Of a stretch of DNA of 64,000 nt, positions 48,354 to 64,000 are shown piece by piece. Source of the stretch: an uncultured Pseudomonadota bacterium (GTDB lineage Bacteria > Pseudomonadota > Alphaproteobacteria > RF32 > CAG-239); NCBI GenBank assembly GCA_949295935.1, contig CASFMW010000011.1, positions 6,822 to 70,821 of the forward strand. Reading direction: 5' to 3'. The notes under the pieces were generated by a model. The model did no database searches. It was not told the DNA's origin and worked only from the letters and a program-made list of their open reading frames with translations. The translations under genes and the position numbers were made by a program. How positions within the stretch are numbered: position 1 is the stretch's first letter; each line of letters opens with the position of its first letter.

Positions 48354-50112
48354 CATTTAATTTCTTTATTTCTTCTAAATTTTTATCTAAAAATGGATAT
48401 TGCAATTTGCAAATTTCTTGATAAAGCACCTTAATTGGAATTTCACCACCATACACACGCTCCCCTATATCACTGGCAGACCAACCGCAAATAGCATTTT
48501 GATACTCTTGCGAAATACCAGCATCTCTTAAATATGGTTTTACAGTATGGCGGAACGAGTGAAATACCTTATTTCTTCCTTCAATTTTTAATCCTTTTAG
48601 ATAACGAGCAAACCACATACTCATAGCATGAGTATAATGATTTTTGGAGCTATACTCAAATTGATAAAATAATCTATCTTTTTTTGCTTCTCTAATGCTT
48701 TTTACAAAGTCAATAAAACCTAATTCTATCAATTTGGGATGTATAGGAACTAATCTTTTTGATTGTTTATTTTTTAGACTTTGGTCTGACCGCTCATTCG
48801 TTAATCTAAAATACCAAATACGATTTAAATACTTAACATCATCAACATATAACTGACAAATCTCATTTAGTCGCATACCTGTATATATCCCAATTAGAGG
48901 AATCCAATACCGCCACGCATAATATATACTATTTTTAGGCGGATAAAATGACGGATTAAAAATATTTTGTAATTCTTCACGATTAAACGCATCAATTTTT
49001 ATAGGGTCTCTCCTCTTTGGAACTTCAATATCATCACTAAAACTTTCCGGAATAAATCTTCTCTTTTTACAATATAAAAGGAACTCCTTAAATGTCCGCA
49101 AATACTTATTGACCGATGTAATTGATATTCTATTTGTTGTTTCTGTTTTTAACAACTCTCTTAATTCTTCTGGCTTATATTTCTCATTCCAACGCTTAGG
49201 AAGTTTATACATTAGCAAAGATAATTTTTGACAATCTTGATAAGTAACATTTTCAATATATTGCTTATCTAATATTGAAAAAGCGGTATAAAGACACAAC
49301 TCATTTTCTTTAATTGAATTTTCACTAATTTTATTATTGCGTTTCTTCTCCGCAAAATCCTTAAATACTCTCTTCCATGGTGTTTGGGTGTTGCTGGATT
49401 TTATTGCCTTTGTATTCTTTGCTAATTCAATAGCAGCAATACACCTTTTAACTCTCTGGTTAATTCCCACAACATCTTCTCCGTTCTGAATGGCGATGGT
49501 GTTCTTATCGATATAGGCATCAACCCCCTTCAAAACTTTTTTAGTATCAATGACCCATTGGCTTATTTTTTCGGGATGAGAAATAATTTTAATATCCTCG
49601 CTATCCAACCGCCCAATCATTTTTACCGTTTGTATTGGCGAACGTTTATCTCGCTTTAAATCGTTAAAATATTCACGAATATACAATTCGACACACTTCA
49701 ACTCTGGTGTAATTGGCGATTGTATAGTTTGTTGTTTTGCCTTATCTAATTTTTCTGGTGAAAATACTTTAACATCATCAAGCTTAAAGGAACCATCAGC
49801 AATATCTTCATAGTTATTTTCAAAAAGTTTTTCGACCTCTTCCAATTTATGAATCACAAGCTTGTCGATATCTGTATCGTCAAGAAATAACTCACCATTT
49901 TTGATTTTCATGTCAATAGCCCTTAACAAATTGATTTTCATATCAATTTTATAGCTTTCTTTTCGCACTTTTTCAAGGGCTTCATAGTAGTTATGCGTTC
50001 TTAATGAATAATTGAACTGAACAGATTTCGCTAAATATACCAATGCTGACGGTATTCTGGCTCTAATGTAGTAAGTGGTGTTTCGCCTAACGAGTCGTGT
50101 ATGCCCATTCAT
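48346..50112 (-). CDS. large tyrosine recombinase/integrase (DUF6538-like N-terminus)
   Basis: N-terminal RRNTTYYIRARIPSAL. C-terminal catalytic region with RLNE, HSFRHT and a terminal Tyr region. Start taken at MNGHTR, with GAGAGG 8 nt upstream; the track ORF extends to 50151. Confidence 0.85.
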   Translation of the reverse strand: MNGHTRLVRRNTTYYIRARIPSALVYLAKSVQFNYSLRTHNYYEALEKVRKESYKIDMKINLLRAIDMKIKNGELFLDDTDIDKLVIHKLEEVEKLFENNYEDIADGSFKLDDVKVFSPEKLDKAKQQTIQSPITPELKCVELYIREYFNDLKRDKRSPIQTVKMIGRLDSEDIKIISHPEKISQWVIDTKKVLKGVDAYIDKNTIAIQNGEDVVGINQRVKRCIAAIELAKNTKAIKSSNTQTPWKRVFKDFAEKKRNNKISENSIKENELCLYTAFSILDKQYIENVTYQDCQKLSLLMYKLPKRWNEKYKPEELRELLKTETTNRISITSVNKYLRTFKEFLLYCKKRRFIPESFSDDIEVPKRRDPIKIDAFNREELQNIFNPSFYPPKNSIYYAWRYWIPLIGIYTGMRLNEICQLYVDDVKYLNRIWYFRLTNERSDQSLKNKQSKRLVPIHPKLIELGFIDFVKSIREAKKDRLFYQFEYSSKNHYTHAMSMWFARYLKGLKIEGRNKVFHSFRHTVKPYLRDAGISQEYQNAICGWSASDIGERVYGGEIPIKVLYQEICKLQYPFLDKNLEEIKKLNEK

Positions 50113-50194
50113 CTTATCGCCTCTCTCTTGTGATACAGGGCTGTGATACACTTGCCGGCAATGCCAAAATAGCGTTTTTAGAATAAAAAAATAA

Positions 50195-50218
50195 CACCTA
50201 ACTTCAATATGTTAGGTG
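50195..50218 (-). terminator. terminator hairpin abutting the tRNA fragment
   Basis: cacctaac/gttaggtg 8-bp stem followed by ttattttttt on the minus strand. Confidence 0.6.
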
Positions 50219-50260
50219 GCGGGGGCAGGATTTGAACCTACGACCTTCAGGTTATGAGTC
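50215..50260 (-). other. about 46-nt 3' portion of an initiator-like tRNA-Met (anticodon loop to ACC), att-like; not a complete tRNA
   Basis: The minus strand reads GACTCATAACCTGAAGGTCGTAGGTTCAAATCCTGCCCCCGCCACC (CAT anticodon loop, T arm, acceptor 3' strand). The sequence 5' of it cannot form the anticodon-stem partner, a D arm or the acceptor 5' strand. Confidence 0.65.
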
Positions 50261-50349
50261 TTGTCCTTTGAGTTTTATTTAATTTGACTTTCACAAGGCT
50301 ATTTTTACTAACTCATTGTTTTATCGTTATCAATTTTAAATACAAACGC

Positions 50350-50378
50350 TTGACTTCCTTTACTGAACTGGATAAAAT
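50350..50378 (+). promoter_or_regulatory. sigma70-like promoter for the integrase gene
   Basis: TTGACT, 17-nt spacer, TAAAAT. Sits 60 nt upstream of ATG 50438. Confidence 0.5.
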
Positions 50379-50390
50379 TTGCTTAAATGT

Positions 50391-50409
50391 GTAGCACCAG
50401 CGTAGCACC
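50391..50409 (+). repeat. tandem GTAGCACC x2 (3-nt spacer) in the integrase leader
   Basis: Read directly from the sequence. Possible arm-type or operator site. Confidence 0.4.
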
Positions 50410-50437
50410 GAAACGACCATCAGGTAAGAGATAAAAT

Positions 50438-51595
50438 ATGGAAAGCAATAAATTTAAATTCACAAAGAGTAATATTGAAAAATTACAGCCTAGTAACAAA
50501 CGCAGTTACTATTACGATACTGCTGAACCTAATCTTGTGCTCCAAGTAACCCCTAACGGAACTAAAACATACTATGTATATAAAAGAATACAAGGTAGGC
50601 CTGTCAGAACATATCTAGGCACAACAGATATTTTGACTCCCGAGATGGCAAGAATAAAGGCAAATGAAGTTAAAGTATCAATTAACAAAGGTGAAAATCC
50701 TCATAAACAAAGCACCAAATACAATGAAAATACAACTTTACAACAACTTTTTGATGATTTTGTAAAAGAACGTGAGCGTTTTATTGGTGAGCGGACAATG
50801 GTTGGTTATAAAAGTATGTGGAACACTAAAATATCCAAGCTTGCTAAAAGAAGATTAAGCGATATTTCCGGAGATGATTTGAAAATCTTACACCGTAAAA
50901 TATCTGAAAACTTTGGAAACTACACTGGTAATCATTGTCTGGTTTTAATCAAAACCGTTTATAACTACGCAATTAAAGAAGAGCGATTTGATGGGAGAAA
51001 TCCTGCAATATCCGTAAAATTAAACAAAACGGAACCTAGAGTAAGATATATGGAACATGCCGAACTTCAAAGATTCTTTGCCGTTTTGGATGAATATGAT
51101 AATGAAATCTCCCGAGACGCAATTTTAATGCTCATCTATACGGGAGCTCGCAAAAGAAACGTTTTGGAGATGAAATGGGCAGATATTGATATGGAAGCAA
51201 AAATCTGGAAAATTCCTCAAACCAAAACCGCCAAAAACGTAACTATAGCCCTAGTTGAACCGGCTATGGAAGTTTTACAAAGGCGTTGGAAGCAAGCTGA
51301 AAACGAATGGGTATTTTATTCTCCGACATCAAAATCAGGTCATGTGGAAGATATAAAGCGAGCCTGGGCAAGTATATTAGAAAAAGCTCAAATCACCAAT
51401 TTAAGAATTCACGATTTACGCCATACACTTGCTACCTATTTGATTGCCAACGGAGCAGATGCCTTTATCGTTCAAAGAGCTTTAACTCATAAAAGCCTTC
51501 AAAGCACGCAAGTTTATGTAAATTTGGGTGTTGAACATTTGCGGGATAAATTAAACGATACCGTTAATAAAATGCTGAATATTGGTAAAAAGTAG
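50438..51595 (+). CDS. P4-type tyrosine integrase (DUF4102 arm-binding N-terminus)
   Basis: N-terminal YYYDTAEPNLVLQVTPNGTKTYYVYKR. Catalytic region GARKRN, HDLRHT, ..TQVYV. Confidence 0.9.
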   Translation: MESNKFKFTKSNIEKLQPSNKRSYYYDTAEPNLVLQVTPNGTKTYYVYKRIQGRPVRTYLGTTDILTPEMARIKANEVKVSINKGENPHKQSTKYNENTTLQQLFDDFVKERERFIGERTMVGYKSMWNTKISKLAKRRLSDISGDDLKILHRKISENFGNYTGNHCLVLIKTVYNYAIKEERFDGRNPAISVKLNKTEPRVRYMEHAELQRFFAVLDEYDNEISRDAILMLIYTGARKRNVLEMKWADIDMEAKIWKIPQTKTAKNVTIALVEPAMEVLQRRWKQAENEWVFYSPTSKSGHVEDIKRAWASILEKAQITNLRIHDLRHTLATYLIANGADAFIVQRALTHKSLQSTQVYVNLGVEHLRDKLNDTVNKMLNIGKK

Positions 51596-51736
51596 CAAAA
51601 AATGACTTTGTTGTCCATTTCTAGAGGCAATATCACAGATATGGAATATCAAATCATCTCTAATGTTGTAAAACAACAAAGAAAACATTGAAAATAGTCG
51701 AATATATTTATAATATTGAGTCGGAGATGTAAGATA

Positions 51737-52405
51737 ATGCCACAAATACCGGAACAGATACTTTTATTTCATTTTACTGCTATTAGTAATCTTGATAGCA
51801 TATTTAGGTGTGGTTGCTTAAAAAGTTATAATATACTAGCTCAAGAAGGACAACTCTATACAAATATAGCATATGCAAGTGTCCAAGAAAAAAGGCATCT
51901 TAAATTAGTCCCAAATACAAATACAAATTTGCATGATTATGTTCCTTTTATGTTTGCTCCCCGCTCTCCAATGCTTTATACTCTAATTAACGGCAATGTT
52001 GAAGAAGCTCAGGAAAATAAGCAAGAAAATATAATCTATTTTGTAACCGACTTTAATACCGTTTCTGATTTAGACTATGTTTTTACTGACTATCATGCTA
52101 TTTTAGAATATGCAGGATATTATACAAAACCTCAAGATTTTGATAAAATTCAATGGCAATTGTTTTTTGAGCCACCTTTATTAGGAGGATATTGTAAATA
52201 TTTTCAGAGTAACATGAAAAAAACTGAATATGCTAAAAGGAAAGAAGCTCGTGAAGCAGAATTTTTAATAAAAAATAAAATAAATCTTGAAAAAATATTG
52301 TATATTGCAGTATTTAATGAAGAAACTCAAAGACTTGTTGAACAAAAATTAAGATTTTTAGGATTAAATATAAGTGTTCAGATAAAAAGAGATTGGTATT
52401 TTTGA
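51737..52405 (+). CDS. darT: DarT-like DNA ADP-ribosyltransferase toxin (DUF4433)
   Basis: LLFHFTAISNLDSI N-terminal motif, YVPFMFAPRSPMLY, and REAEFLIKN (catalytic Glu context). GGAGA Shine-Dalgarno 9 nt upstream of the ATG. Confidence 0.8.
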   Translation: MPQIPEQILLFHFTAISNLDSIFRCGCLKSYNILAQEGQLYTNIAYASVQEKRHLKLVPNTNTNLHDYVPFMFAPRSPMLYTLINGNVEEAQENKQENIIYFVTDFNTVSDLDYVFTDYHAILEYAGYYTKPQDFDKIQWQLFFEPPLLGGYCKYFQSNMKKTEYAKRKEAREAEFLIKNKINLEKILYIAVFNEETQRLVEQKLRFLGLNISVQIKRDWYF

Positions 52406-53427
52406 TGATATATTTTGAAAAAAATAAAAACATATTTGAAAGAGAAGTTGATGCCATCATCAACACGGTTAATTGTGTCGGCGTCATGGGAAAAGGTATC
52501 GCTCTTCAATTTAAACAACTGTATCCAGATAACTTCAAACAATATAAAAAAGCCTGCGATAAAAAAGAGATTATTCCGGGGAAAATGTTTGTATATGATA
52601 ATGGTTTTTTGAACAAACCCAATTATATTATAAACTTCCCAACAAAAAATCATTGGCGAGAAAAATCTAAGATAGAATATATTACGACAGGTCTAAATGA
52701 TTTATGTAAGGTCATAGAAAAGCTGAAAATAAAATCTATTTCCATTCCTCCGCTTGGTTGTGGAAACGGTGGTCTTGATTGGAATATTGTAAAAAAATAT
52801 ATTGTAGAGAAATTAAGTCAATACAGTGATATTGATTGCTATATTTACGAACCTACAAATAACTTTACTAATATACAAAATAAAGAAAAAGCTACACTCA
52901 CATCATTTAGAGCAGTCTTTCTAAAATCAATACAGATATATAATGATGCCTTGTATGAACTCAGCAGCATAGAAATTCAAAAATTAGTTTATTTTATAAA
53001 TTTGCTAATGAAAAACGGCAAATTAAAATACACTAAAGCCCCTTATGGGCCATTCTGTGCAAATTTACACAATGCAATAGATAATCTATCTGGATACTAT
53101 ATCACAGGATTAAAAGATGGCACGGAAGTAAATCACATAAAATTATGTGATGGAATTCTCTCTGAAGTAGATGATTTTATTGCCAAATCAACAGAAAATT
53201 TATCCCAATATATTGAAAAAATAAAACAAATTATTAGTGGATTTGAAACACCCTTTGGTATGGAGCTTTTGGGAACCGTTCATTGGGTTGTTGCACAAGA
53301 AGGTGCAAGAAATATTGATGAAACAATAATAAAAGTTCATAACTGGAACGACCGAAAAAAACAATTAATGTCACCTCAAGACATTACAATAGCATATAAT
53401 CATCTTAAAATGTGCGGACTAATATAA
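52405..53427 (+). CDS. darG: DarG-like macrodomain antitoxin
   Basis: N-terminal macrodomain (VDAIINTVNCVGVMGKGIALQFK ... IPPLGCGNGGLDW) plus a C-terminal extension. The start overlaps the darT stop (TGATG). Confidence 0.8.
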   Translation: MIYFEKNKNIFEREVDAIINTVNCVGVMGKGIALQFKQLYPDNFKQYKKACDKKEIIPGKMFVYDNGFLNKPNYIINFPTKNHWREKSKIEYITTGLNDLCKVIEKLKIKSISIPPLGCGNGGLDWNIVKKYIVEKLSQYSDIDCYIYEPTNNFTNIQNKEKATLTSFRAVFLKSIQIYNDALYELSSIEIQKLVYFINLLMKNGKLKYTKAPYGPFCANLHNAIDNLSGYYITGLKDGTEVNHIKLCDGILSEVDDFIAKSTENLSQYIEKIKQIISGFETPFGMELLGTVHWVVAQEGARNIDETIIKVHNWNDRKKQLMSPQDITIAYNHLKMCGLI

Positions 53428-53446
53428 AAACATTAAGAAAATAACC

Positions 53447-54394
53447 ATGGCAAAGCTATATAACGAAGATAAACATTGTGATTTAGACTTGTTTTACAGC
53501 AAGAAGACAGCCTTTTTTGACAATATTGATTTTTCGCAAGCTTCACCGGAAGAAATTAACAAAATAATGAATTTGGCAATTTCTGAGATTTTCTTTGATG
53601 ATTGTATATTTACAAATTTGAACCTTAGCAATAAAAAATTCTTTAGAAAAATAACTTTTAATAAATGTTTATTCAAAGGAAATACAAATTTCTCCAATAG
53701 TCAATTTGAGGATTTTATAAGCTTTGACCGTTCAACTTTTGACGGGATAACCAAGTTTAATGATACGGTTTTTAATGCCGGAGTAAGCTTTGTTGAAATT
53801 CATACAAAACCAGCTCGTGGTGGCTATTTCTACTACCGCGGAGATGGTATTGATTACAGTAAATACCCCAAATATTATGAAAATGTTTTGGATTTTTCAG
53901 GAGCGAAGTTTGAAACCGAAGTTTCATTTTTCGGTCGCCGCTTTTTTGAAGACACCTCATTTAGTCGTGCCACATTTTATAACAAATTCTGGTTTTCAGA
54001 ATGCAATATCGGCTTAAAAACCAATTTTAACGCCAATTTTGCTTGTGATGGTATTAAAAATATTGATATGTGCTACCGCATTTTGAAGGATGTATTAAGC
54101 AAAGAGGGATATTCAATTCAAGCTCGCACGATTGAACGTTTGGAACAAAAAATTATAGATAAACAAAACAAAGATGATTTACTGCCCTCTCCGACCAAGC
54201 CCAATACACCTAACAAACACAATTCTGATTTACTGACAACGGCTGAGGCCGCTGAGTATCTGGGCTTAAAAATCAACACATTGGAACGTTGGCGTAGTCA
54301 ATTCCCCAATCGATTACCCTTTGTAAAAATCGGCAGAACCGTAAAATACCGCTTGGAAGACTTACAAGCATACATCAGCAAGAATATAAAATAA
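53447..54394 (+). CDS. pentapeptide-repeat domain fused to an excisionase-family HTH
   Basis: N-terminal run of pentapeptide-like repeats (CIFTNLNLSNKKFFRKITFNKCLFKGNTNFSNSQFEDFISFDRSTFDGITKFNDTVF..). C-terminal LLTTAEAAEYLGLKINTLERWRSQ..PFVKIGRTVKYRLEDLQAYI. Confidence 0.7.
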   Translation: MAKLYNEDKHCDLDLFYSKKTAFFDNIDFSQASPEEINKIMNLAISEIFFDDCIFTNLNLSNKKFFRKITFNKCLFKGNTNFSNSQFEDFISFDRSTFDGITKFNDTVFNAGVSFVEIHTKPARGGYFYYRGDGIDYSKYPKYYENVLDFSGAKFETEVSFFGRRFFEDTSFSRATFYNKFWFSECNIGLKTNFNANFACDGIKNIDMCYRILKDVLSKEGYSIQARTIERLEQKIIDKQNKDDLLPSPTKPNTPNKHNSDLLTTAEAAEYLGLKINTLERWRSQFPNRLPFVKIGRTVKYRLEDLQAYISKNIK

Positions 54395-54494
54395 AGGGAC
54401 TAACCTGCACCTACCTACAGTAAAGCTATTCTTGACAACAACCATAAAGTGTATCAAGGTATAAATATCAGAAATTTTAGCTCCGGGAGATAAT

Positions 54495-56612
54495 ATGACA
54501 AAAAAAACTAATATCAATCAAAATTTTGATAACCAAGATTGGTGGAAGACTGCTACTTTAGAAGATGTCTTAAACGAAATATCAAAAGGAGCAGATTTAA
54601 ATCATTTTTCTAAAGGTCTTTTTATGCAAAACTCATTTAGTTACGCCATGAGGAACAAGACTAAAGAAAGGTTTGAAATATTGAAGACTCTTGTAAAAAA
54701 AGGGGCTGAATTCGAGCATGAGCTTCCTGATTTGTTTGCATATTATTCTATTGATGAAGCTATATATTTTTTAGAACAAGCAAGTCCCATAGAAACATAT
54801 GTATTAAACAGTATCTTCTGTTATCTAATACAGTATAATCGTATAGAACCTTTAAAATATATATTAAATCGCTATCAAGACATAATTTTTACTTTAGAAG
54901 AAACGTATAAACTTGCACGTATTAAAGACAAAGATATTATATCCATCTTTTTAAACAAAGTTATTATACCGCATAAAGAGGAGCTCAATCTTATTACTAC
55001 CATTGTGTCTGAGGCGTGTAAGCAAGAAAACGCAACTTTATTAAATGTCTTATTAGATAAAGTATTTACTAGCAAATTTCCTGAAAATATATGCGATAAT
55101 ATACTGACATCCAATGCTCTAAATAGAGAACTAATTCTCAAATTTCTGGAAAAAGGTGTTGATAAAAATTTAAAAGACAGCCATGGGAGAACATTATTAA
55201 ACCAGCTTACCAATATCTATTGTCAAAGATTTAACCCCGAAGAAACATCTCTTAAATTAATAAAAGAAGACATCCTTTATTGGATTGATTATGGCATGGA
55301 TGTTAATATACCCTGTAACAACGGTAGCACACCTCTATTAAACATGTGTTCTGCAACGGTTCCGTCATTAGAAATTATATCAAAGTTGATTTCCAAAGGA
55401 GCTGATGTTAATGTTAAAAGGAAGGATTATGTCAAAATTAAATTATCTGAATTATACAGAGCCGCACCTACTGATAACGATACACCTTTGTATAATGCCA
55501 TTGATAAAAGTGCAAATACTGAGTTGATACACTTATTATTAGATTCTGGGGCTAACGTTAATGCTTACGACAGAAACAATGATGTATCTATTATTGATAT
55601 TGCAATAAAGAGAGAATGTAACACCGAAACGATAGATAAAATATTAAAATCTGGTATTAATGACTATTATAAAAAACGCGGTTTTTTAAGACTTATAAGA
55701 CAAGGTGGTTCTTTTGATATTTTTAATGTTTTCATTAACAATGGAATTGATATAAATGAAAAATTCACTGGATACGTTGAATGGGTGTGGTGGTGCAAAG
55801 ATTATACTCCATTAATGATGGCTTGTTACTGTGGTAATTTAGATTATGTAAAATTATTAATAGATTTAGGAGCAGACACTAATGTCAAAGATGAAAAAGG
55901 AAGGTCATTATTGTCTATTGCTTGCCTGGCCACATTTCCAGAACCATCTTTAATAGAATTTTTAATAAAATTAGGCTTTGACGTTAATGAACAAGATGAT
56001 GAAGGAAATACACCGTTAATGATAAGCTATCAAAATGGAGACCTCGCTAGTATTTTCAATGTGTTAATTAAAAATGGAGCAGATATCAATAAAAGAAATC
56101 ATAATGGGGATAATATTTTATTAGTCAAATATTATCCGATTAATTCTCGAACAAATATCGATAGGGTTTGTGTAAAACATGGTGCCGATGTAACAGTCGT
56201 AAATAATAATGGGAAAAAGGTAAATGAATATTATATTTCATTACATGAAGAATTATTTGATACCGTTATTGACAGAAAAAAAATAGATAAAGAAGTTGAA
56301 AATAAATTGAAAAACAAAGAAGCAAAACAAAACTCAAAAATTAATACCCCCAACCTTTTTAAGAATAAAGTTGTTTGTTTTGCAGGATTTAAAAACAAAA
56401 AGCTATCTGATTATATCAAAAGTCATGGTGGCAAGTATGTTACTTCTTTAATTGATGACTGTAATCTGCTAATCAGAAAGCATCAATATCGGGGAACAAC
56501 TAGTGAAGATTCCTTAGTTAGAGAAGCAATTGAAAAAGTAATTAAGACAGAACCACTTTGTGAAATTGAAAATAAAATACAAGAATATGGAGACATAGAA
56601 CAATTGCGTTAG
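54495..56612 (+). CDS. ankyrin-repeat protein with C-terminal BRCT-like domain (705 aa)
   Basis: Multiple ANK units (G.TPL..A......i..LL..GADVN pattern, e.g. DEGNTPLMISYQNGDLASIFNVLIKNGADIN). C-terminal NKVVCFAGFKNKKLSDYIKSHGGKYVTSLIDDCNLLI resembles the LigA-type BRCT. Confidence 0.75.
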   Translation: MTKKTNINQNFDNQDWWKTATLEDVLNEISKGADLNHFSKGLFMQNSFSYAMRNKTKERFEILKTLVKKGAEFEHELPDLFAYYSIDEAIYFLEQASPIETYVLNSIFCYLIQYNRIEPLKYILNRYQDIIFTLEETYKLARIKDKDIISIFLNKVIIPHKEELNLITTIVSEACKQENATLLNVLLDKVFTSKFPENICDNILTSNALNRELILKFLEKGVDKNLKDSHGRTLLNQLTNIYCQRFNPEETSLKLIKEDILYWIDYGMDVNIPCNNGSTPLLNMCSATVPSLEIISKLISKGADVNVKRKDYVKIKLSELYRAAPTDNDTPLYNAIDKSANTELIHLLLDSGANVNAYDRNNDVSIIDIAIKRECNTETIDKILKSGINDYYKKRGFLRLIRQGGSFDIFNVFINNGIDINEKFTGYVEWVWWCKDYTPLMMACYCGNLDYVKLLIDLGADTNVKDEKGRSLLSIACLATFPEPSLIEFLIKLGFDVNEQDDEGNTPLMISYQNGDLASIFNVLIKNGADINKRNHNGDNILLVKYYPINSRTNIDRVCVKHGADVTVVNNNGKKVNEYYISLHEELFDTVIDRKKIDKEVENKLKNKEAKQNSKINTPNLFKNKVVCFAGFKNKKLSDYIKSHGGKYVTSLIDDCNLLIRKHQYRGTTSEDSLVREAIEKVIKTEPLCEIENKIQEYGDIEQLR

Positions 56613-56628
56613 TTTTCAACATCCCTAC

Positions 56629-56656
56629 AGAATCGCCATAAATGGATTCTTTTTTC
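56629..56656 (+). terminator. weak terminator after the ankyrin gene
   Basis: agaatc/gattct stem followed by a T-run. Confidence 0.4.
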
Positions 56657-56751
56657 TGCAATTAAACAGATATTCTTATTGAAAAATAAACCTTTTTACT
56701 TTAGGCTTTGAGGCATTAGAAATATACCAATAAAGTCTAGAGGAATTTGGA

Positions 56752-58461
56752 ATGTCTATAAACGGAAATATCAATCAAAAAGCAAATTTAATCTGGTCAA
56801 TAGCTGATGTTTTGACCGGAACATATAAACCTCATGAATATGGCGAAGTTATTTTGCCAATGATGGTTATTAAGCGTTTTGATTGTATTTTGGAAGACAC
56901 CAAGGAAGCTGTATTGAAAAAATTGCCTGAAGTTAGCAATTTACCGATGAAAGATATCTTTCTAAAAAAGGCAAGCGGACATCCGTTTTACAATACAAGT
57001 AAATTTAATTTCAAACGATTATTAGACGCTCCTGACAGTATTGAAATAAATTTCCGTTCATATTTGAATGATTTTTCCGATAATGTAAAAGATATTTTAG
57101 AGCATTTTGAATTTGAACGCCATATTGAAAGATTAGCTTCGCATGATTTGCTTTATATGATTATAAAAAAGTTTAGCACTCCTGACGCTGATTTACACCC
57201 CTCAAAAATTAGCAACTTGGAAATGGGATATATTTTTGAAGAAATTATTCGCCGCTTTTCAGAAGCTCATAACGAAGATGCTGGACAACACTATACCCCA
57301 AGAGAAGTCATAGAACTTATGGTTAATATACTTTTCAATAATGATAATAGCATATTGACCGGAAATGTTGCAAAAACACTATATGACCCAACCGTAGGAA
57401 CGGGCGGAATGCTTTCCGTTGCGGAAGAATATCTTTCAAGACTAAACAAAAATGCAAAGCTTATTTGTTATGGACAAGAGATAAATGACCAAACCTTTGC
57501 TATTTGCAAAGGAGATATGCTCATTAAAGGAAATGATGCAAACAACATTAAATGCGGCAATACATTATCTGATGACCAATTTGCAGATGATAAGTTTGAT
57601 TATATATTATCGAATCCGCCTTTTGGTAGAGAATGGAAAAATGATAAAAACGCCGTGGAAAAAGAAGCAAAATTGGGGTTTGCTGGGCGTTTTGGTGCCG
57701 GATTACCGCCTATTAGCGATGGACAAATGCTCTTTTTGCAAACAGCAATCCACAAAATGAGACCGGAAGGTTCAAAAGTTGCTATTATTCAAAATGGTTC
57801 TCCGTTATTTAGTGGTGATGCCGGAAGCGGACAATCAGAAATACGCAAATATATATTGGAAAACGATTTGTTAGAAGCTATCGTTGCTCTACCTAATGAT
57901 TTGTTTTATAATACCGGCATTGCAACCTATATTTGGGTATTTAACAACAAAAAGCCTGTGGAAAGAAAAGGCAAGGTTCAACTTATAAATGCCAATGGAT
58001 TATATGAAAAACGCCGTAAATCATTAGGAAATAAGAGAAACGACATTCCGCAAAAGTATATAGATAAAATTACACAAATTTACGGAGATTTCAAAGAAAA
58101 TGAAATTAGCAAGATTTTTAATAACGAAGACTTTGGTTATGCAAAAATTGTAGTTGAACGCCCGCAAAGGGATGAAAATGGCGAAATTATCTTGAAAAAA
58201 GGTAAGCCGATAGCGGATTCTGAATTAAGAGATACAGAAAACGTGCCTTTAACAGAAGATATTCATGAATATTTTCAGCGAGAAGTTATTCCTTTTGCTC
58301 CGGATGCATGGATAGATGAAAGCAAAACTAAAATTGGCTATGAAATTCCATTTACAAGATATTTTTACAAATATGTTCCACCTCGCCCATCTGATGAGGT
58401 TTTGTCAGAAATTATGACTTTACAAAAAGATTTGGAACAAACCTTGAAAGGATTGTTTTAA
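56752..58461 (+). CDS. hsdM: type I restriction-modification methyltransferase subunit HsdM
   Basis: HsdM N-domain (LWSIADVLTG), SAM motif DPTVGTGGML, catalytic NPPFG. Confidence 0.95.
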   Translation: MSINGNINQKANLIWSIADVLTGTYKPHEYGEVILPMMVIKRFDCILEDTKEAVLKKLPEVSNLPMKDIFLKKASGHPFYNTSKFNFKRLLDAPDSIEINFRSYLNDFSDNVKDILEHFEFERHIERLASHDLLYMIIKKFSTPDADLHPSKISNLEMGYIFEEIIRRFSEAHNEDAGQHYTPREVIELMVNILFNNDNSILTGNVAKTLYDPTVGTGGMLSVAEEYLSRLNKNAKLICYGQEINDQTFAICKGDMLIKGNDANNIKCGNTLSDDQFADDKFDYILSNPPFGREWKNDKNAVEKEAKLGFAGRFGAGLPPISDGQMLFLQTAIHKMRPEGSKVAIIQNGSPLFSGDAGSGQSEIRKYILENDLLEAIVALPNDLFYNTGIATYIWVFNNKKPVERKGKVQLINANGLYEKRRKSLGNKRNDIPQKYIDKITQIYGDFKENEISKIFNNEDFGYAKIVVERPQRDENGEIILKKGKPIADSELRDTENVPLTEDIHEYFQREVIPFAPDAWIDESKTKIGYEIPFTRYFYKYVPPRPSDEVLSEIMTLQKDLEQTLKGLF

Positions 58462-58462
58462 G

Positions 58463-59140
58463 ATGAGTGAAGCAACAGAAAACCATACAATTACAAATAT
58501 TGGAGCTGGAATAGCCAAAGCTGTTATGAACTCGAATCCAATAACCGGTTTTGTTCAAACCATATATGATGAGTATGCATCAAGACAATGGCAGCAGAGA
58601 AGAGAAAAATGGGAAGAAGTTTTTGAGGAAAAACTTAAGGATATTCAAAACGATGTTGATTTTTTAAAGATAAATTCTATTCCAAATTTTGCTCAAATAC
58701 TAGCCAATGCCACACAGGGAGCTATGTCTGATATAGAAGAAGATAAAGTGGGATTGTATGCTAATGCGGTTATCAATTCTATCAAGAGCGAAAATATTGA
58801 TAATACTAAAACGCATATATTTTTAAATATGTTGCGAGACTTCACAAAACTCCATATAGAAGTATTACAAGAACTAGCTTTGTTAGATAATGGAATACAC
58901 CCAAATTTACGCCACGGCAGAGATAGTTATATAAAACAAAGAATTAGAGAAAAAAATCCACAACTCATAGAAGATATAGGAATGTTTAGGCTGACAGCTT
59001 TAGAATTACAACAAAAAGGTCTGTGTGTTGTAACTGTTATTGATATGGCAGATAACAGTGATTATGACAATGTAATAACCACTTCATTAGGCCAAGAATT
59101 TCTTCAATTCATAGCAGAACAGGAGAATAGTAATGGGTAA
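58463..59140 (+). CDS. unknown protein X1 (225 aa), Abi-alpha/DUF4393-like core motif; paralogue of X2
   Basis: Starts 1 nt after the hsdM stop. The block DIEEDKVGLYANAVINSIK..IDNTK.HIFLNMLR and the tail LGQEFLQFIAEQE are shared with X2. Confidence 0.75.
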   Translation: MSEATENHTITNIGAGIAKAVMNSNPITGFVQTIYDEYASRQWQQRREKWEEVFEEKLKDIQNDVDFLKINSIPNFAQILANATQGAMSDIEEDKVGLYANAVINSIKSENIDNTKTHIFLNMLRDFTKLHIEVLQELALLDNGIHPNLRHGRDSYIKQRIREKNPQLIEDIGMFRLTALELQQKGLCVVTVIDMADNSDYDNVITTSLGQEFLQFIAEQENSNG

Positions 59141-59825
59141 GAAAGAGGAAATGCTAGAGTGCCTAAAAAATATAACAATAGCAGGAGCACCTCTCATTTT
59201 AACACCTGTTGGAGCAGCCTTGTTATCATTAGCAAATGAATGCTTTAATTCAACAGCTCAAACAAGACAAGATAAATGGAATGAAGAAATTGTAACAAAA
59301 ATATCTAATTTATCGGAAGATTTTGAAGAGAAATTTAATACGTGCTCTAATTTTGCCAGTATATTAGCCACAGCACAAAGGGGGGCATTGGAAGATATAG
59401 AAGAAGATAAAGTGGGTTTGTATGCTAATGCAGTTATAAATTCTATTAAAAATGAAGATATTGATAATACAAAAATACATATCTTTTTGAATATGTTGAG
59501 AAAATATTCAAAACTACATTTAGGTATATTGCAAAAATTTTCCCCCACTTCGGGAAATAATATTTATGAAATATTGAAAGATATTTTTTGTAAAAGGTCT
59601 AATTACCATGATAATGATTTAGATACTCAAATAAAAGCAATATTTCATCAAAAAGATAAATTTAATCCTGTGGAATATACAATAGTTAATGAATTATATA
59701 ATGACAATTTGTTTTCTGTGCAAGTAAGTCCAGAGCACATCTCATATAAGGAAAGTAATTTGGATATTCAGATAACGCCATTAGGACAAGAATTTCTTCA
59801 ATTCATTGCAGAACAGGAGAAATAA
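59133..59825 (+). CDS. unknown protein X2 (230 aa), paralogue of X1
   Basis: 8-nt overlap with X1, with AGGAGA 6 nt upstream. Shares the conserved central block and C-terminal tail with X1. Confidence 0.75.
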   Translation: MGKKEEMLECLKNITIAGAPLILTPVGAALLSLANECFNSTAQTRQDKWNEEIVTKISNLSEDFEEKFNTCSNFASILATAQRGALEDIEEDKVGLYANAVINSIKNEDIDNTKIHIFLNMLRKYSKLHLGILQKFSPTSGNNIYEILKDIFCKRSNYHDNDLDTQIKAIFHQKDKFNPVEYTIVNELYNDNLFSVQVSPEHISYKESNLDIQITPLGQEFLQFIAEQEK

Positions 59826-59826
59826 G

Positions 59827-60768
59827 ATGAGGCATAAAAAGTCAGAGCATAATGAAACACAAACATCAAGAGAAAGATTTGTATTTCATATAGATACAAC
59901 AAAGCCTGAAATCACATTGCAGGATTTCATAGAAATCTCAAAGTCTTTAGAAGTAACTTGTAAATCAGTTTCTGCGTTGGTTTTTAATAATGCTCCATGC
60001 CAGATTATAATTGAAACCCCTGAGAATGGTTCATTAAAGTTAGTATATAAAATTGCAATGGCTGTTGGTATTGCTTTAGCTCCAGATATTACTAATGGAA
60101 TATTGGAAGAATACACAAATCATGATGTTAAATATTATGCAGGAAAGGCTAGCAGAGCTTTTACAGATTGTGTTAGTGGCATTTATTCTGCGTCAATGGA
60201 TAAACTAAAAAAAACATTAAGGGGGCTTCCAGAAGAAAACAAGGATAAATTTGAGAGAATAATAAAAGCTCAAAATGATTTTTACGGAACATTAAATAAG
60301 ACTAAAGAATTTAAAGGTGTTGGATTTTCTGATGACTATAACTTTCCTGTATCTAGAAAAGAGTTTTCCATTCATACAACAAATGATATAGAAAGAATTT
60401 TACCAACAGAACAAGCTCTTAAACATCTCGTCATTTACAAATCATTGAATGTTAATGAGGACGGAAAATGGGAGTTTAAAGATAAAGCAGATGGTAGCCA
60501 TTTTTCAGCTAATATTGAAGATGAGTTCTTTAAAAAACAGTTTCTAAATGGTAAGAATCCGTTAAAAAAGACAAAAAAAGATGATGAAATTATAGCTTTA
60601 GTGGAATATGAAAAAAAGATAAAAAACGGTTCAGCAATAGAACAAAACAGAGTTATCAAAGAGATTTATACATTTAATAATAAAGAATTAAGAAAAACTC
60701 CGGAAAATTTAATTATGAATCTAATGAAAAAGAAAGAAGATAAGCAAGGGGATTTGTTTGATGACTAG
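59827..60768 (+). CDS. unknown protein X3 (313 aa)
   Basis: ATG 59827 lies 1 nt after the X2 stop, with AGGAGA 6 nt upstream; the track start 59806 is less likely. No recognisable motif. Confidence 0.7.
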   Translation: MRHKKSEHNETQTSRERFVFHIDTTKPEITLQDFIEISKSLEVTCKSVSALVFNNAPCQIIIETPENGSLKLVYKIAMAVGIALAPDITNGILEEYTNHDVKYYAGKASRAFTDCVSGIYSASMDKLKKTLRGLPEENKDKFERIIKAQNDFYGTLNKTKEFKGVGFSDDYNFPVSRKEFSIHTTNDIERILPTEQALKHLVIYKSLNVNEDGKWEFKDKADGSHFSANIEDEFFKKQFLNGKNPLKKTKKDDEIIALVEYEKKIKNGSAIEQNRVIKEIYTFNNKELRKTPENLIMNLMKKKEDKQGDLFDD

Positions 60769-62008
60769 GGCGATGAAAGATAGCGGAATTGAATGGATTG
60801 GTCAAATTCCTGAAAATTGGAATATTTCTAAATTAAAAAATTTTAATAAAATCATAATGGGGCAATCTCCATCTTCTGAAGATTATAATTTAGATAATAT
60901 AGGCTTCCCTTTTTTGCAAGGGAATGCTGATTTTACTAATTTATATCCTAAAGAACGTGTTTATACAAAATCTGCCACAAAGTTTTCAAAACCCCTAGAT
61001 ATTCTGTTTTCAGTGAGAGCTCCTGTAGGAGAAAAAAATATTGCAAACAAAAGATATGCTATTGGTAGAGGTCTATGTGCTATCTGTCCAATGTCTCATA
61101 TAATGAAGTATGTATGGTATTTTTTAGATGTGGTAAAAAAAGAATTAGATAGTATTTCTAGTGGTTCAACATTTGATTCTGTATCAGTAGCTGAAATAAA
61201 AAACGCTTGTTATGTTTTTCCTGAAATTACCGAACAACAAAAAATAGCGGATTATTTGGATAAAAGATGTGAGAAGATTGATACTGCTATAGATAATCAG
61301 AAGCAAATCATAGAAAAACTCAAAGAATATAAACAATCTTTGATTACAGAAACCGTAACCAAAGGTCTGAACCCAAATGTAAAATTGAAAGATAGTGGAA
61401 TTGAATGGATTGGCTCAATCCCCGAACATTGGGAAATTCGAAAGCTATCTCGTTTATTTAAAGAAAGAAAATGCAAAAACACAGGAATGAAAGAGCATAA
61501 TGTACTTTCTTTAAGTTACGGTAAAATCAAAAAACGAGATATAGAAAATAATATGGGGTTGCTTCCTGAAAGTTTTGAAACATACAATATAGTTATTCCA
61601 GGAAATATTGTTTTGCGTCTAACAGATTTACAAAACGACCATAGAAGCTTACGTACAGGTTTAGTAAAGGAAGTAGGAATTATTACGTCAGCATACGTAA
61701 CTATGGAAAGAATAATGGATATTGATGAGGATTACTATCACAAATTATTACATACATTTGATATAATGAAAGGCTTTTATAATATGGGTGATGGAGTACG
61801 ACAAAGTTTGAAGTTTAATGAGTTGAATAAGCTACTACTGCCTCAGCCCCCTCTTTCTGAGCAGAAAGAAATAGCAGAGTATTTAGATAAGAAATGTAAC
61901 CAAATAGATGAAGCAATCAAACAAAAAGAAGAAACTATTAGCAAATTGGAAGAATATAAAAAATCCTTAATCTTTGAATGTGTAACCGGCAAAAAAGAGG
62001 TAGCCTAG
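60761..62008 (+). CDS. hsdS: type I R-M specificity subunit HsdS
   Basis: Two target-recognition domains, each opened by KDSGIEWIG.IPE.W. Each is followed by a conserved helical spacer (QQKIADYLDKRCEKID..LKEYKQSLI and EQKEIAEYLDKKCNQID..LEEYKKSLI). Confidence 0.92.
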   Translation: MTRAMKDSGIEWIGQIPENWNISKLKNFNKIIMGQSPSSEDYNLDNIGFPFLQGNADFTNLYPKERVYTKSATKFSKPLDILFSVRAPVGEKNIANKRYAIGRGLCAICPMSHIMKYVWYFLDVVKKELDSISSGSTFDSVSVAEIKNACYVFPEITEQQKIADYLDKRCEKIDTAIDNQKQIIEKLKEYKQSLITETVTKGLNPNVKLKDSGIEWIGSIPEHWEIRKLSRLFKERKCKNTGMKEHNVLSLSYGKIKKRDIENNMGLLPESFETYNIVIPGNIVLRLTDLQNDHRSLRTGLVKEVGIITSAYVTMERIMDIDEDYYHKLLHTFDIMKGFYNMGDGVRQSLKFNELNKLLLPQPPLSEQKEIAEYLDKKCNQIDEAIKQKEETISKLEEYKKSLIFECVTGKKEVA

Positions 62009-62009
62009 C

Positions 62010-62405
62010 ATGACATGGTCTGATTTCTTTTCATCTCAAATCTTTGGTGTTATTATCGGTGCTATTTTAACAGCAGGATTTACTTGGTTTATAGAATATT
62101 TAAGAGCTAAAAGAGATGAAAAATTGTATGTAAAAAGAAAAAGAGAAGAAGTTTATCTTAAGTTATTAGATTTATTAAATGAATATGTTGAACTCCATAA
62201 TGACAATAAAACACCCAATGATGTTGAAATGAAAGAATTTTGGGTAAGATACAAACAATTACGCCCAGCTGTAAAAGTGTATGCATCTCAACACATCGAG
62301 GAATGGTTTTTAGAATCTCTTGATGAAGCCTTTAAAGGAGGTATAAAAGGTCAAGTTAATGGTTTGGCAAAAGAAATTCGTAAAGAACTCGGTATAAAGG
62401 ATTAA
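62010..62405 (+). CDS. unknown single-pass membrane protein Y1 (131 aa), paralogue of Y2
   Basis: Starts 1 nt after the hsdS stop. N-terminal TM (IFGVIIGAILTAGFTWFI), shared KRKREEVY.KL motif and IRKELGIKD tail. Confidence 0.7.
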   Translation: MTWSDFFSSQIFGVIIGAILTAGFTWFIEYLRAKRDEKLYVKRKREEVYLKLLDLLNEYVELHNDNKTPNDVEMKEFWVRYKQLRPAVKVYASQHIEEWFLESLDEAFKGGIKGQVNGLAKEIRKELGIKD

Positions 62406-62408
62406 GCT

Positions 62409-62864
62409 ATGGAATGGTCACAGCTTATTATATCTGCATTATCTGGTATTTTAGGAGCTGCTGTTGGCGGTTTTGCAACTTATAAAACTACAACAAAGCA
62501 ATTCAAATTTATGGCAAAACAAGAGTTGCAGAAGCAAAGAAGAGATGATGAACTTTATTTAAAAAGAAAAAGAGAAGAAGTTTATGTAAAGCTATACGAT
62601 TTTCTAATGAGATTAGAAAAAGATATTCGTATCAGAAAAAATACCTATATGAGCGAAGAAACCAAAAATTATTATAATAATTTAGAAATGCAAACAATTT
62701 GGGCTTCAAATAAGGTTTCAGACAAATTTTATGATTTATGTGAGGCTTTGTGTCAAAGTGCGAATGAATATAAAAAAGATGTAAATAAAGCCCATAACAA
62801 AAATAATAAGAAAATATTAGCCTTTAAGGATTATATTCGTAAAGAGTTGAGCATAAAAGATTAG
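62409..62864 (+). CDS. unknown single-pass membrane protein Y2 (151 aa), paralogue of Y1
   Basis: N-terminal TM (IISALSGILGAAVGGFA), KRKREEVYVKL motif, IRKELSIKD tail. 3-nt gap after Y1. Confidence 0.7.
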   Translation: MEWSQLIISALSGILGAAVGGFATYKTTTKQFKFMAKQELQKQRRDDELYLKRKREEVYVKLYDFLMRLEKDIRIRKNTYMSEETKNYYNNLEMQTIWASNKVSDKFYDLCEALCQSANEYKKDVNKAHNKNNKKILAFKDYIRKELSIKD

Positions 62865-62874
62865 GAGAACGCCA

Positions 62875-64000
62875 ATGGCTGAAGATAACTTAAAAGAAAT
62901 AAATTTAGAAGAAGCAATTGAGCATTCTCTTATTACCCTAGGAGGATACCAAAAAGGTAATCCAGCCAATTTTGACCGAAAATTGGCTCTTGATACTGAA
63001 ACTTTGCTTAATTTTATTAAAACAACTCAGCCTAAGGCTTGGAAACGTTATCAAACTCATTATCCTGTTAATCCGGAAGAATGTTTTATTTCTAACTTAT
63101 GCAAGGCAATAAAGGATAACGGTTTGCTCAAATGTTTGAGAAAACCGTTCCAAGACCGAGGTGTAAAGTTTTATCTATGTTATTTTAAGCCGGAAAGCCA
63201 TATCAACCAAGAGGCCGTTGATTTATATAATCAAAATATTCTACATTGCACTCGCCAATTGCACTATTCTTTATCTAATGAAAACAGTATAGATATTGTT
63301 TTGTTCTTAAATGGTATTCCGTTAGTTTCTATGGAATTAAAAAATCAATTTACCGGACAAGATTATAGCAATGCAATTTCTCAATATAAATTTGACAGAG
63401 CCGGAAAAGATGCCATTTTTGAATTTAAGAATAGAGTATTGGTTCATTTTGCCGTAGATTTGTATAATGTTTATATGACAACCAGATTACAGGGAGACAG
63501 CACTTATTTTCTACCTTTTAACCAAGGTTCAAATGGAGCCGGCAATGTTGGAGGTAAAGGAAATCCTGTTAATCCGAATGGGTTTGCAACATCTTATCTT
63601 TGGGAGAAAATCCTTGCTAAAGATAGTTTTATGGAAATTGTGCAAAAATATCTGCATTTGCAAATTATAAAAGATAAAAAAGGTGTCAAAACCAAAGAAA
63701 TTATGATTTTTCCAAGATATCATCAGTTAGATGTTGTTACCAAACTATTAGCTGATGTAAAGACAAATGGGGTAGGAAAAAATTATTTAATTCAACACTC
63801 GGCTGGTTCAGGAAAATCTAACTCTATTGCTTGGCTGGCTCATCAATTGGCCGGACTTCACGACAACCATGATGAAAATATCTTTAATTCTATTATTGTT
63901 TTAACCGACAGAAGAGTTTTAGATGCTCAGTTACAAGATACAATCTATCAATTTGACCATGTAGCCGGTGTGGTTAAAAAAGTGAAAAATGGTTCAAAAG
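62875..64000 (+). CDS. hsdR: type I restriction enzyme R subunit HsdR (5' part; continues beyond the window)
   Basis: Not in the ORF track because the frame is still open at the window end. Hand translation from ATG 62875 (AGGAGA Shine-Dalgarno) gives MAEDNLKEINLEEAIEH.., the nuclease-domain motif IDIVLFLNGIPLVSMELK, FPRYHQ and the Walker A motif HSAGSGKSNS. Confidence 0.9.
   Translation, partial: MAEDNLKEINLEEAIEHSLITLGGYQKGNPANFDRKLALDTETLLNFIKTTQPKAWKRYQTHYPVNPEECFISNLCKAIKDNGLLKCLRKPFQDRGVKFYLCYFKPESHINQEAVDLYNQNILHCTRQLHYSLSNENSIDIVLFLNGIPLVSMELKNQFTGQDYSNAISQYKFDRAGKDAIFEFKNRVLVHFAVDLYNVYMTTRLQGDSTYFLPFNQGSNGAGNVGGKGNPVNPNGFATSYLWEKILAKDSFMEIVQKYLHLQIIKDKKGVKTKEIMIFPRYHQLDVVTKLLADVKTNGVGKNYLIQHSAGSGKSNSIAWLAHQLAGLHDNHDENIFNSIIVLTDRRVLDAQLQDTIYQFDHVAGVVKKVKNGSK

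Follow-up and report, generated by a model that had tools for sequence, protein, structure and literature searches.

Type I restriction-modification (R-M) operons are established carriers of defence genes: PrrC is found in EcoprrI and TgvAB in V. cholerae VPI-2, and in enteropathogenic Escherichia coli DarTG2 separates hsdS from hsdR. The hsdS/hsdR site has been called a potential hotspot of recombination, and guilt-by-embedding (Payne et al.) has added 145 PDC candidates, which are defined by their embedding in type I R-M, BREX or DISARM loci and were selected with mobilome and housekeeping functions excluded. Here we analyse an operon with such cargo, hsdM-X1-X2-X3-hsdS-Y1-Y2-hsdR, at the end of a 64,000-nucleotide stretch (the window) of contig CASFMW010000011.1 from an uncultured alphaproteobacterium of the GTDB group CAG-239. 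As in the known cases, the cargo is co-oriented with the hsd genes at the hsdM/hsdS and hsdS/hsdR junctions and varies between similar operons. In contrast to them, the window carries other families without a recognisable enzymatic domain, and three cassettes (five genes) occupy both slots.

A second point of reference is Ronin, composed of HsdMS and RonA, a transmembrane (TM) effector of 61 amino acids that is sequestered by HsdMS. Ronin and PrrC resemble the window locus in that a small TM protein or an abortive infection (Abi) effector is linked to hsdS or hsdM and would provide backup immunity on top of restriction. Ronin is without hsdR and RonA is always hsd-linked, whereas the window operon contains hsdR and its Y proteins (131-151 amino acids) belong to a family found mostly outside R-M operons. 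PrrC is an ABC-ATPase anticodon nuclease, and the ATPase and nuclease domains of PrrC and RloC are absent from the five window proteins in searches of Pfam, NCBIfam and PADLOC.

Results

The five accessory genes resolve into three independent cassettes

We gathered 61 related loci and annotated them with family hidden Markov models and phmmer, and selected neighbours with Pfam and PADLOC. Across these loci the five accessory genes form three independent cassettes, X1/X2, X3 and Y1/Y2. The initial annotation had read them as one undescribed R-M-coupled module; this reading fails because the X, X3 and Y families are distributed independently. Between hsdM (M), hsdS (S) and hsdR (R) we find a single X (M-X-S-R; L010, L017-20), X3 alone (M-X3-S-R; L025), X3 together with a PIN_12 gene (M-X3-S-PIN_12-R; L028), and the larger combinations M-X-SIR2-S-Y-Y-R (L009, L021-24), M-X-X3-S-Y-Y-R (L002, L037) and M-X-X-X3-S-PIN_12-Y(-Y)-R (L001, L054), while the window has M-X-X-X3-S-Y-Y-R. 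The slot of X3 is occupied in other operons by a bona fide SIR2 effector (PADLOC SIR2, 1e-16).

Outside type I operons, X is located between the mod and res genes of type III systems (Mod-X-Res; L011, L014), directly after a GmrSD type IV gene (L003), in a standalone X-SIR2 pair (L006), beside NOV_C, RhuM or Sir2 genes (L004, L050 and L013, respectively), and in prophages just upstream of a tail-tube gene (L015, L061). Each of the three families is found without the other two and outside type I operons. With regard to the survey of homologues with and without hsd genes that had been proposed, X and X3 do occur in R-M operons, but all three families are also present without hsd genes, and Y mostly so. 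Taken over all loci, the neighbours of the X, X3 and Y families comprise R-M types I, III and IV, SIR2, PIN_12, DarTG, HipA, RhuM and NOV_C.

Two of the additional cargo genes were located in the sister loci. The SIR2-like gene following X is found at 7149-8144 of L021, in a type I operon, and at 10635-11666 of L006, in the standalone pair (PADLOC 1e-16 and 3e-13); the two proteins are 48% identical. The PIN_12 gene, encoding approximately 370 amino acids, sits at the hsdS/Y1 or hsdS/hsdR junction (L001 12549-13682, L028 4693-5796, and L054), and the window is without it.

Cassettes are exchanged at conserved joints

Comparison of the window with its sister loci by blastn shows that cassettes are exchanged within a near-identical hsdM/hsdR scaffold and that the breakpoints fall at conserved joints. 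The hsdM/hsdR arms are 91-99% identical at the DNA level (approximately 99% for the proteins) while the interior is replaced between sister operons, with X3 versus SIR2, PIN_12 present or absent, one or two X genes and one or two Y genes. One breakpoint maps to the conserved core of X (around position 58837) and another to the 43-nucleotide conserved X tail, where identity to L002 and L037 resumes at approximately 59775. Further breakpoints coincide with the classical pair of conserved hsdS regions (61232-61443 and 61847-62007), reflecting the swapping of target-recognition domains relative to L001, L021 and L037, and with the KRKRE-motif region of Y (62046-62173). The PIN_12 insertion of L001 lies exactly between 62007 and 62025, i.e. 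at the hsdS/Y1 junction. The breakpoint blocks recur as direct repeats inside the operon (Table 1).

The last 14 codons of X (LGQEFLQFIAEQE) are its most conserved part in both DNA and protein, and they carry the ribosome-binding site AGGAGA of the next gene. The 3' tail of X may have two roles, as a joint for recombination and in translational coupling.

Layout of the hsd operon

The open reading frame (ORF) list places all eight genes on the + strand, and the coordinates and junctions of the initial annotation are exact: in order, a 1-nucleotide gap, an 8-nucleotide overlap, a 1-nucleotide gap, an 8-nucleotide overlap, and gaps of 1, 3 and 10 nucleotides. Shine-Dalgarno sites of the sequence AGGAGA, reported for several downstream starts, precede X2, X3 and hsdR, and the other starts have weaker purine-rich GGA/GGGG sites. 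Since tight junctions are frequent among the operons of this genome, the spacing speaks for an operon without being unusual per se. Promoter and terminator scans inside the operon stayed at background level and revealed no strong internal terminators; together with the spacing this suggests that the hsd operon is co-transcribed. The gene order recurs across independent metagenomes (L001, L002, L037, L054), which indicates that the genes are real and conserved.

Pfam and PADLOC both identify HsdM, HsdS and HsdR, and all domains expected of them are present. HsdM shares approximately 99% protein identity with the sister loci (91-99% for the DNA). HsdS matches Pfam Methylase_S in two stretches (1.6e-21) and PADLOC Specificity_I over residues 6-415 (8e-91), and consists of two target-recognition domains and internal conserved repeats (direct repeats D3 and D5). 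For HsdR the complete protein is seen in the sister loci: an intact gene for 1003 amino acids is found in L001 and L002, with a DNA identity of 97.6-98.7% over the shared part (97.6% for L001). In one NCBI assembly the hsdR gene of an M-X-S-R operon is divided into two ORFs of 388 and 617 amino acids (L018, 9903-12876); sister contigs have an intact gene for 990 amino acids, and the split is probably a frameshift or a pseudogene.

The two paralogue pairs seen at first inspection are borne out, with 39% identity between X1 and X2 (E 8e-41) and 29% between Y1 and Y2 (E 1e-11). None of the five accessory proteins obtained a curated Pfam, NCBIfam or PADLOC assignment, and scans that included PHROGs gave sub-threshold matches. 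Domain scans with Pfam, NCBIfam and PADLOC also agree with the earlier statement that no nuclease, P-loop or kinase domain is present in any of the five.

Table 1. Features of the operon and of the adjoining island, in window coordinates.
Feature	Position	Strand	Description and basis
Tyrosine integrase	50438-51595	+	Protein 100% identical to L001 gene annotated Phage_integrase
DarT	51716-52405	+	100% identical to L001 gene annotated PF14487 DarT
DarG/Macro	52393-53427	+	100% identical to L001 gene annotated PF01661 Macro
Pentapeptide-repeat protein	53447-54394	+	C-terminal excisionase-type HTH_17 domain; between DarTG and hsdM
Ankyrin-repeat protein	54495-56612	+	705 amino acids; weak C-terminal BRCT match; between DarTG and hsdM
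hsdM	56752-58461	+	Type I methyltransferase subunit, 569 amino acids; Pfam HsdM_N 1.8e-26, N6_Mtase 3.6e-65; PADLOC MTase_I 6e-259
X1	58463-59140	+	Abi-alpha-like, 225 amino acids, all-helical mosaic; homologue, Pfam and structure-model comparisons
X core joint, direct repeat D1, X1 copy	58685-58873	+	77% DNA identity to X2 copy
X 3' tail joint, repeat D4, X1 copy	59085-59127	+	95% DNA identity to X2 copy; encodes LGQEFLQFIAEQE
X2	59133-59825	+	X1 paralogue, 230 amino acids, other N- and C-variable modules; comparison with X1
X core joint, direct repeat D1, X2 copy	59349-59537	+	77% DNA identity to X1 copy
X 3' tail joint, repeat D4, X2 copy	59779-59821	+	95% DNA identity to X1 copy; encodes LGQEFLQFIAEQE
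X3	59827-60768	+	Probable distant PDC-S42/LAPAL superfamily member, 313 amino acids; ATG start, upstream TTG at 59806
X3 C-terminal QGDLF	60745-60759	+	Residues 307-311 of 313, after Lys-rich linker; model confidence (pLDDT) of tail <50
hsdS	60761-62008	+	Specificity subunit, 415 amino acids; ATG start, TTG at 60758
Y1	62010-62405	+	131 amino acids, N-terminal TM helix; family alignment; KD19 1.87, residues 10-28
Y2	62409-62864	+	Y1 paralogue, 151 amino acids; KD19 1.85, residues 6-24
hsdR	62875-64000	+	Restriction subunit, first 375 amino acids; Pfam HSDR_N 1.7e-14, SWI2_SNF2, ResIII; truncated by window end

X1 and X2 are mosaic proteins with a probable relationship to Abi-alpha through intermediates

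Our searches yielded 139 homologues of X. The Pfam family PF14337 (Abi_alpha/DUF4393) was matched at E<=0.01 by 4 of 45 X-family members, one of them above the gathering threshold of 29 bits. Three proteins that are 64-65% identical to X1 (P0036, P0032 and P0035) score 29.5, 27.8 and 26.7 bits when aligned to positions 6-151 of the 196-position model, while X1 and X2 themselves gave no match to PF14337 or any other Pfam family even at E<=1. By this transitive route X1 and X2 appear to be a distant branch of the Abi-alpha family. Its characterised member, EF2833 from prophage 6 of E. faecalis V583, was experimentally shown to be a single-gene Abi protein that acts by premature lysis, with the mechanism unknown (PMC6356687). 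Like X, Abi-alpha is a single all-helical protein of approximately 220-270 amino acids that occurs in prophages and defence islands; it is known from Firmicute prophages, in contrast to the tandem copies of X1/X2 in restriction operons of gut Alphaproteobacteria.

The AlphaFold2 (AF2) model of X1 is all-alpha with a mean confidence (pLDDT) of 70.5 and had no significant fold match in the PDB. Winged-helix-like matches of its C-terminal part had a probability of <=0.35 and were not used. The X-family profile retrieved nothing meaningful from PDB sequences, tblastn of X1 and P0036 against phages and plasmids gave single weak matches at most, and scans of viral contigs detected one X locus. The X genes of L015 (9968-11641, in a Holdemanella genome) and L061 (7968-9682, on an IMG/VR contig) adjoin a phage tail-tube gene on its upstream side. 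This neighbour is a Phage_tube_2 gene (1e-54 and 1e-46), and the moron-like position of X echoes the prophage origin of Abi-alpha.

X is a mosaic of four parts, namely an N-module (residues 1-74), a conserved core (75-135), a C-variable module (136-205) and a conserved tail (206-221). Between X1 and X2 the core is 75% and the tail 88% identical while the variable modules share 11-28%. The X protein of L002 combines the N-module of window X1 (98% identical) with the C-module of L021 (96% identical). The layout of X, in which conserved joints separate variable modules, thus resembles that of HsdS. This agrees with the observation that DUF4393 genes are 23-fold enriched among the targets of programmed inversions (PMC9881135).

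The variable modules follow neither the gene upstream nor the gene downstream, and the same N-module is seen after both hsdM and GmrSD. The idea that X co-evolves with a downstream partner, as a sensor with its effector, was rejected. The X protein preceding SIR2 in L021 is 70% identical to the X preceding X3 in L002 and 35% identical to the X preceding SIR2 in L006, so that no co-evolution of X and SIR2 is seen. We infer a diversifying function for X, in recognition or as an Abi protein; the tandem X1/X2 would supply two module combinations.

X3 and its putative clamp-docking tail

X3 matches the PADLOC model of PDC-S42 with an E-value of 7e-7 (27 bits) over residues 173-278 and model positions 185-285 of 302, and the NCBIfam model LAPAL_fam (NF053583) with 5e-8 and 32.6 bits, which is under the curated cutoff of 60 bits. 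Close relatives of X3 number 10, and an exhaustive profile search collected 218 representative clusters (at 50% identity) of full-length proteins of approximately 300 amino acids. Three PDC-S42 models are matched by 32, 20 and 12 of 86 superfamily members (best 2.6e-16), and LAPAL_fam by 43 of the 86 at E<=0.001 (best 2.1e-14). This indicates that X3 belongs to a distant branch of a superfamily containing PDC-S42, a family catalogued as a PADLOC candidate. X3 and its relatives are located between hsdM and hsdS, and X3 relatives are also found alone there, which corresponds to the embedding by which PDCs are defined. PDC-S42 and X3 thus share a size of approximately 300 amino acids and a place in restriction operons, while the match of X3 is partial and covers the C-terminal ~100 residues.

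X3 contains a hydrophobic stretch at residues 70-88. Its AF2 model (pLDDT 73) had no match in the PDB and in BFVD matched uncharacterised prophage proteins alone, at a TM-score of 0.30. The X3-family profile retrieved nothing meaningful from PDB sequences, and tblastn against phages and plasmids with X3, P0229 and P0190 as queries yielded at most single weak matches. Scans of viral contigs found no X3 locus; the broad X3 alignment was too divergent for use in scanning. On a Paracoccus plasmid a distant relative of X3 is found by itself, with a recombinase and a type II R-M/Vsr cluster as neighbours.

X3 ends in a QGDLF motif (Table 1) whose Q, G, L and F are invariant in the close relatives. 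The pattern Q..LF is present within the last 15 amino acids of 53 of 134 full-length superfamily members, compared to 0.24 expected from shuffled sequences and 0 of 666 background ORFs; variants of the tail include QLSLF, QLNLF and QMSLF. The bacterial clamp-binding consensus is QL[S/D]LF or QxxLF, often C-terminal and with positions 1, 4 and 5 critical, and SocB, a replication toxin, has a motif of this kind with which it binds DnaN and blocks replication elongation (PMC9690074, PMC11952451). At the level of the motif, the tail of X3 has the features of a beta-clamp-binding element, i.e. QxxLF at the C-terminus in a flexible region, and the putative docking peptide is KKKEDKQGDLFDD. In the literature searched we found no report of a clamp-type QxxLF tail in a defence family. 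The likeness to SocB of the Caulobacter SocAB system is drawn from the motif, and X3, unlike SocB, has no adjoining gene for a cognate antitoxin or protease adaptor.

An alternative tail, P-M-[D/E]-x-x-W, is seen in 7 of the 134 superfamily members, among them P0195, P0199, P0201, P0203, P0213 and P0226. This tail may be an alternative docking motif.

Y1 and Y2 are small membrane proteins

Y1 carries the motif KRKREEVY and the C-terminus IRKELGIKD. In the alignment of the Y family, including Y1 and Y2, the KRKRE..Y motif is invariant and is accompanied by the IRKELGIKD C-terminus, and an N-terminal TM-type helix (KD19 ~1.85 in Y1 and Y2) is found in 22 of 26 members. Y2 has an N-terminal anchor unlike that of Y1 and a longer C-terminal part. 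Y proteins are also mosaics, as the N-terminus of P0133 is of the Y1 type and its C-terminus of the Y2 type. Searches with Y1 and Y2 of Pfam, PADLOC, NCBIfam and the literature gave no match, and the Y-family profile retrieved nothing meaningful from PDB sequences.

The 52 homologues of Y2 lie mostly outside R-M operons. The usual place of Y is the last gene after a membrane protein, and its other contexts are mostly membrane proteins as well. In at least 17 loci with no R-M nearby, Y follows a 459-amino-acid protein with one TM segment (Z459-Y module). Examples are L029 (5563-7444) and L033 (5581-7456) from gut Alphaproteobacteria, in which a first protein of 413-459 amino acids is followed by a single Y. 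Z459 was considered as a clue to Y and discarded, as it returned only noise of the coiled-coil type (DruC/LmuB, E ~1e-5). Y may be a membrane-acting accessory or effector protein, and this is the weakest part of our account.

Island context of the operon

The operon forms the distal part of an integrative island that also bears DarTG. The toxin-antitoxin defence pair DarT/DarG (51716-53427, + strand) directly follows the tyrosine integrase and is located upstream of the hsd operon (Table 1). All upstream genes of the island, from the integrase to the ankyrin/BRCT protein, are 100% or nearly 100% identical to their L001 counterparts. Relatives of the HTH_17 and ankyrin-repeat proteins border hsd operons in several sister loci.

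DNA identity to L001 starts in blastn at window position 50233, within a tRNA-like sequence. On the minus strand, positions 50222-50266 resemble the 3' half of a tRNA, with the anticodon CAT in the loop CTCATAA, the T-loop GGTTCAAATCC and a 7-nucleotide acceptor strand, and probably represent a remnant of a tRNA gene. ARAGORN and Rfam made no call for the remnant, as expected for a fragment, and Rfam detected no RNA family in 49500-64000. The beginning of L001 identity inside this remnant suggests integrase-mediated insertion into a tRNA gene. The homologues come almost wholly from gut and rumen Alphaproteobacteria metagenome-assembled genomes.

Discussion

The expectation that accessory genes settle at hsd junctions is well founded, as cargo at both hsdM/hsdS and hsdS/hsdR is known with PrrC, TgvAB, DarTG2 and the guilt-by-embedding candidates. 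The initial annotation could not match the arrangement to a named system. This no longer applies to X, which leads to Abi-alpha, or to X3, which leads to the candidate PDC-S42, and it still holds for Y; sequence comparison makes X and X3 probable distant branches of an already named family and of a candidate family, respectively, and leaves Y uncatalogued. Since defence cargo in hsd operons is established and X and X3 probably join named families, the locus is a further example of known embedded cargo. As for the R-M-coupled defence module that had been proposed, the genes are plausible anti-phage accessory cargo, but a single system is not supported, and their families occur separately.

We consider it likely that the locus is a type I R-M operon in which two junctions serve as cargo slots for three separate cassettes, each co-expressed with the restriction genes and probably directed against phages. 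In this explanation an R-M operon of type I that looks functional, on an integrase-borne island with DarTG, would offer its hsdM/hsdS and hsdS/hsdR junctions as slots, and both would be filled by three unrelated, independently mobile cassettes that are co-oriented with and translationally coupled to the hsd genes. X1/X2, a duplicated and probably distant member of the Abi-alpha family, would encode a diversifying phage-sensing abortive-infection protein; X3 may dock on the DnaN sliding clamp and interfere with or monitor DNA replication; and Y1/Y2, a duplicated single-pass membrane protein, may be a membrane-acting effector or accessory. Each cassette would then supply a second-line anti-phage function co-expressed with restriction. 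More tentatively, X3/PDC-S42/LAPAL proteins might as a group dock on the sliding clamp via QxxLF and sense or poison replication, with the X proteins as modular phage sensors shuffled in the manner of HsdS, a combination that we regard as possible rather than probable.

Several points weigh against our explanation. No anti-phage activity has been demonstrated for the five genes or close relatives. The connection of X1/X2 to Abi-alpha is transitive and passes through intermediates, PDC-S42 is itself a candidate from which no mechanism can be transferred to X3, and co-transcription is deduced from spacing and the terminator scan. The common contexts of Y, after the 459-amino-acid membrane protein and in some cases near ribosomal protein genes, are not obvious defence islands. 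Furthermore, independent occurrence of the families is compatible with functional cooperation with HsdMS when they are embedded.

The main rival is a guard or decoy arrangement similar to PrrC and Ronin, in which HsdM/HsdS would restrain one or more embedded proteins until a phage anti-restriction protein (Ocr/ArdA-like) inactivates or binds the R-M enzyme; the freed protein would then cause cell death or arrest. Being translationally coupled to hsdM and hsdS, the embedded genes are presumably co-produced with them, embedded X always adjoins a gene for a methylase or a restriction enzyme in operons of types I, III and IV, and Y1/Y2 as small TM proteins beside hsdS are reminiscent of HsdMS-sequestered RonA and of PrrC. 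We nevertheless think such an arrangement unlikely, because the families also occur free of R-M genes, with X-SIR2 in L006, X in the prophages of L015 and L061, the X3-like gene on the Paracoccus plasmid and Z459-Y in at least 17 loci. In addition, the X modules show no covariation with the gene before them, one and the same N-module being found after hsdM and after GmrSD, and the five proteins have neither a sequence link to PrrC or RloC nor an ABC ATPase.

It is more doubtful still that the cassettes are non-defence cargo, such as addiction or maintenance modules, regulators of restriction (alleviation or establishment), or factors of the island that act at the membrane or in replication. 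An experimental defence phenotype is lacking for all five genes, Y is found in contexts with housekeeping neighbours, clamp-binding tails are also present in toxins of toxin-antitoxin systems such as SocB, and the C-terminal part of X has weak, non-significant winged-helix-like fold matches. On the other hand, the neighbours of the families are overwhelmingly defence-related, X has an Abi protein as its closest characterised relative, and the nearest relative of X3 was chosen after mobilome and housekeeping functions had been excluded. A single integrated, undescribed five-protein system that functions only as a set with HsdRMS is highly improbable: its eight genes are tightly coupled on one strand and the complete arrangement is seen again in several metagenomes (L001, L054), but near-identical hsd scaffolds carry a single or a double X, X3 or SIR2 or neither, PIN_12 or not, and zero to two Y, and each family is also found on its own elsewhere.

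The explanation by separate cassettes in two cargo slots does not overturn current views. The locus clearly illustrates the use of hsd junctions as plug-in slots in nature, with the recombination joints visible at nucleotide resolution. The modularity of X and the tail of X3 are leads rather than surprises, and they narrow the experiments. Abi-alpha-like proteins appear to be assembled from exchangeable modules, like specificity subunits; the likely clamp-docking tail of the candidate PDC-S42 family points to the replisome as its possible site of action; and Y represents an uncatalogued family of small membrane proteins in gut Alphaproteobacteria.

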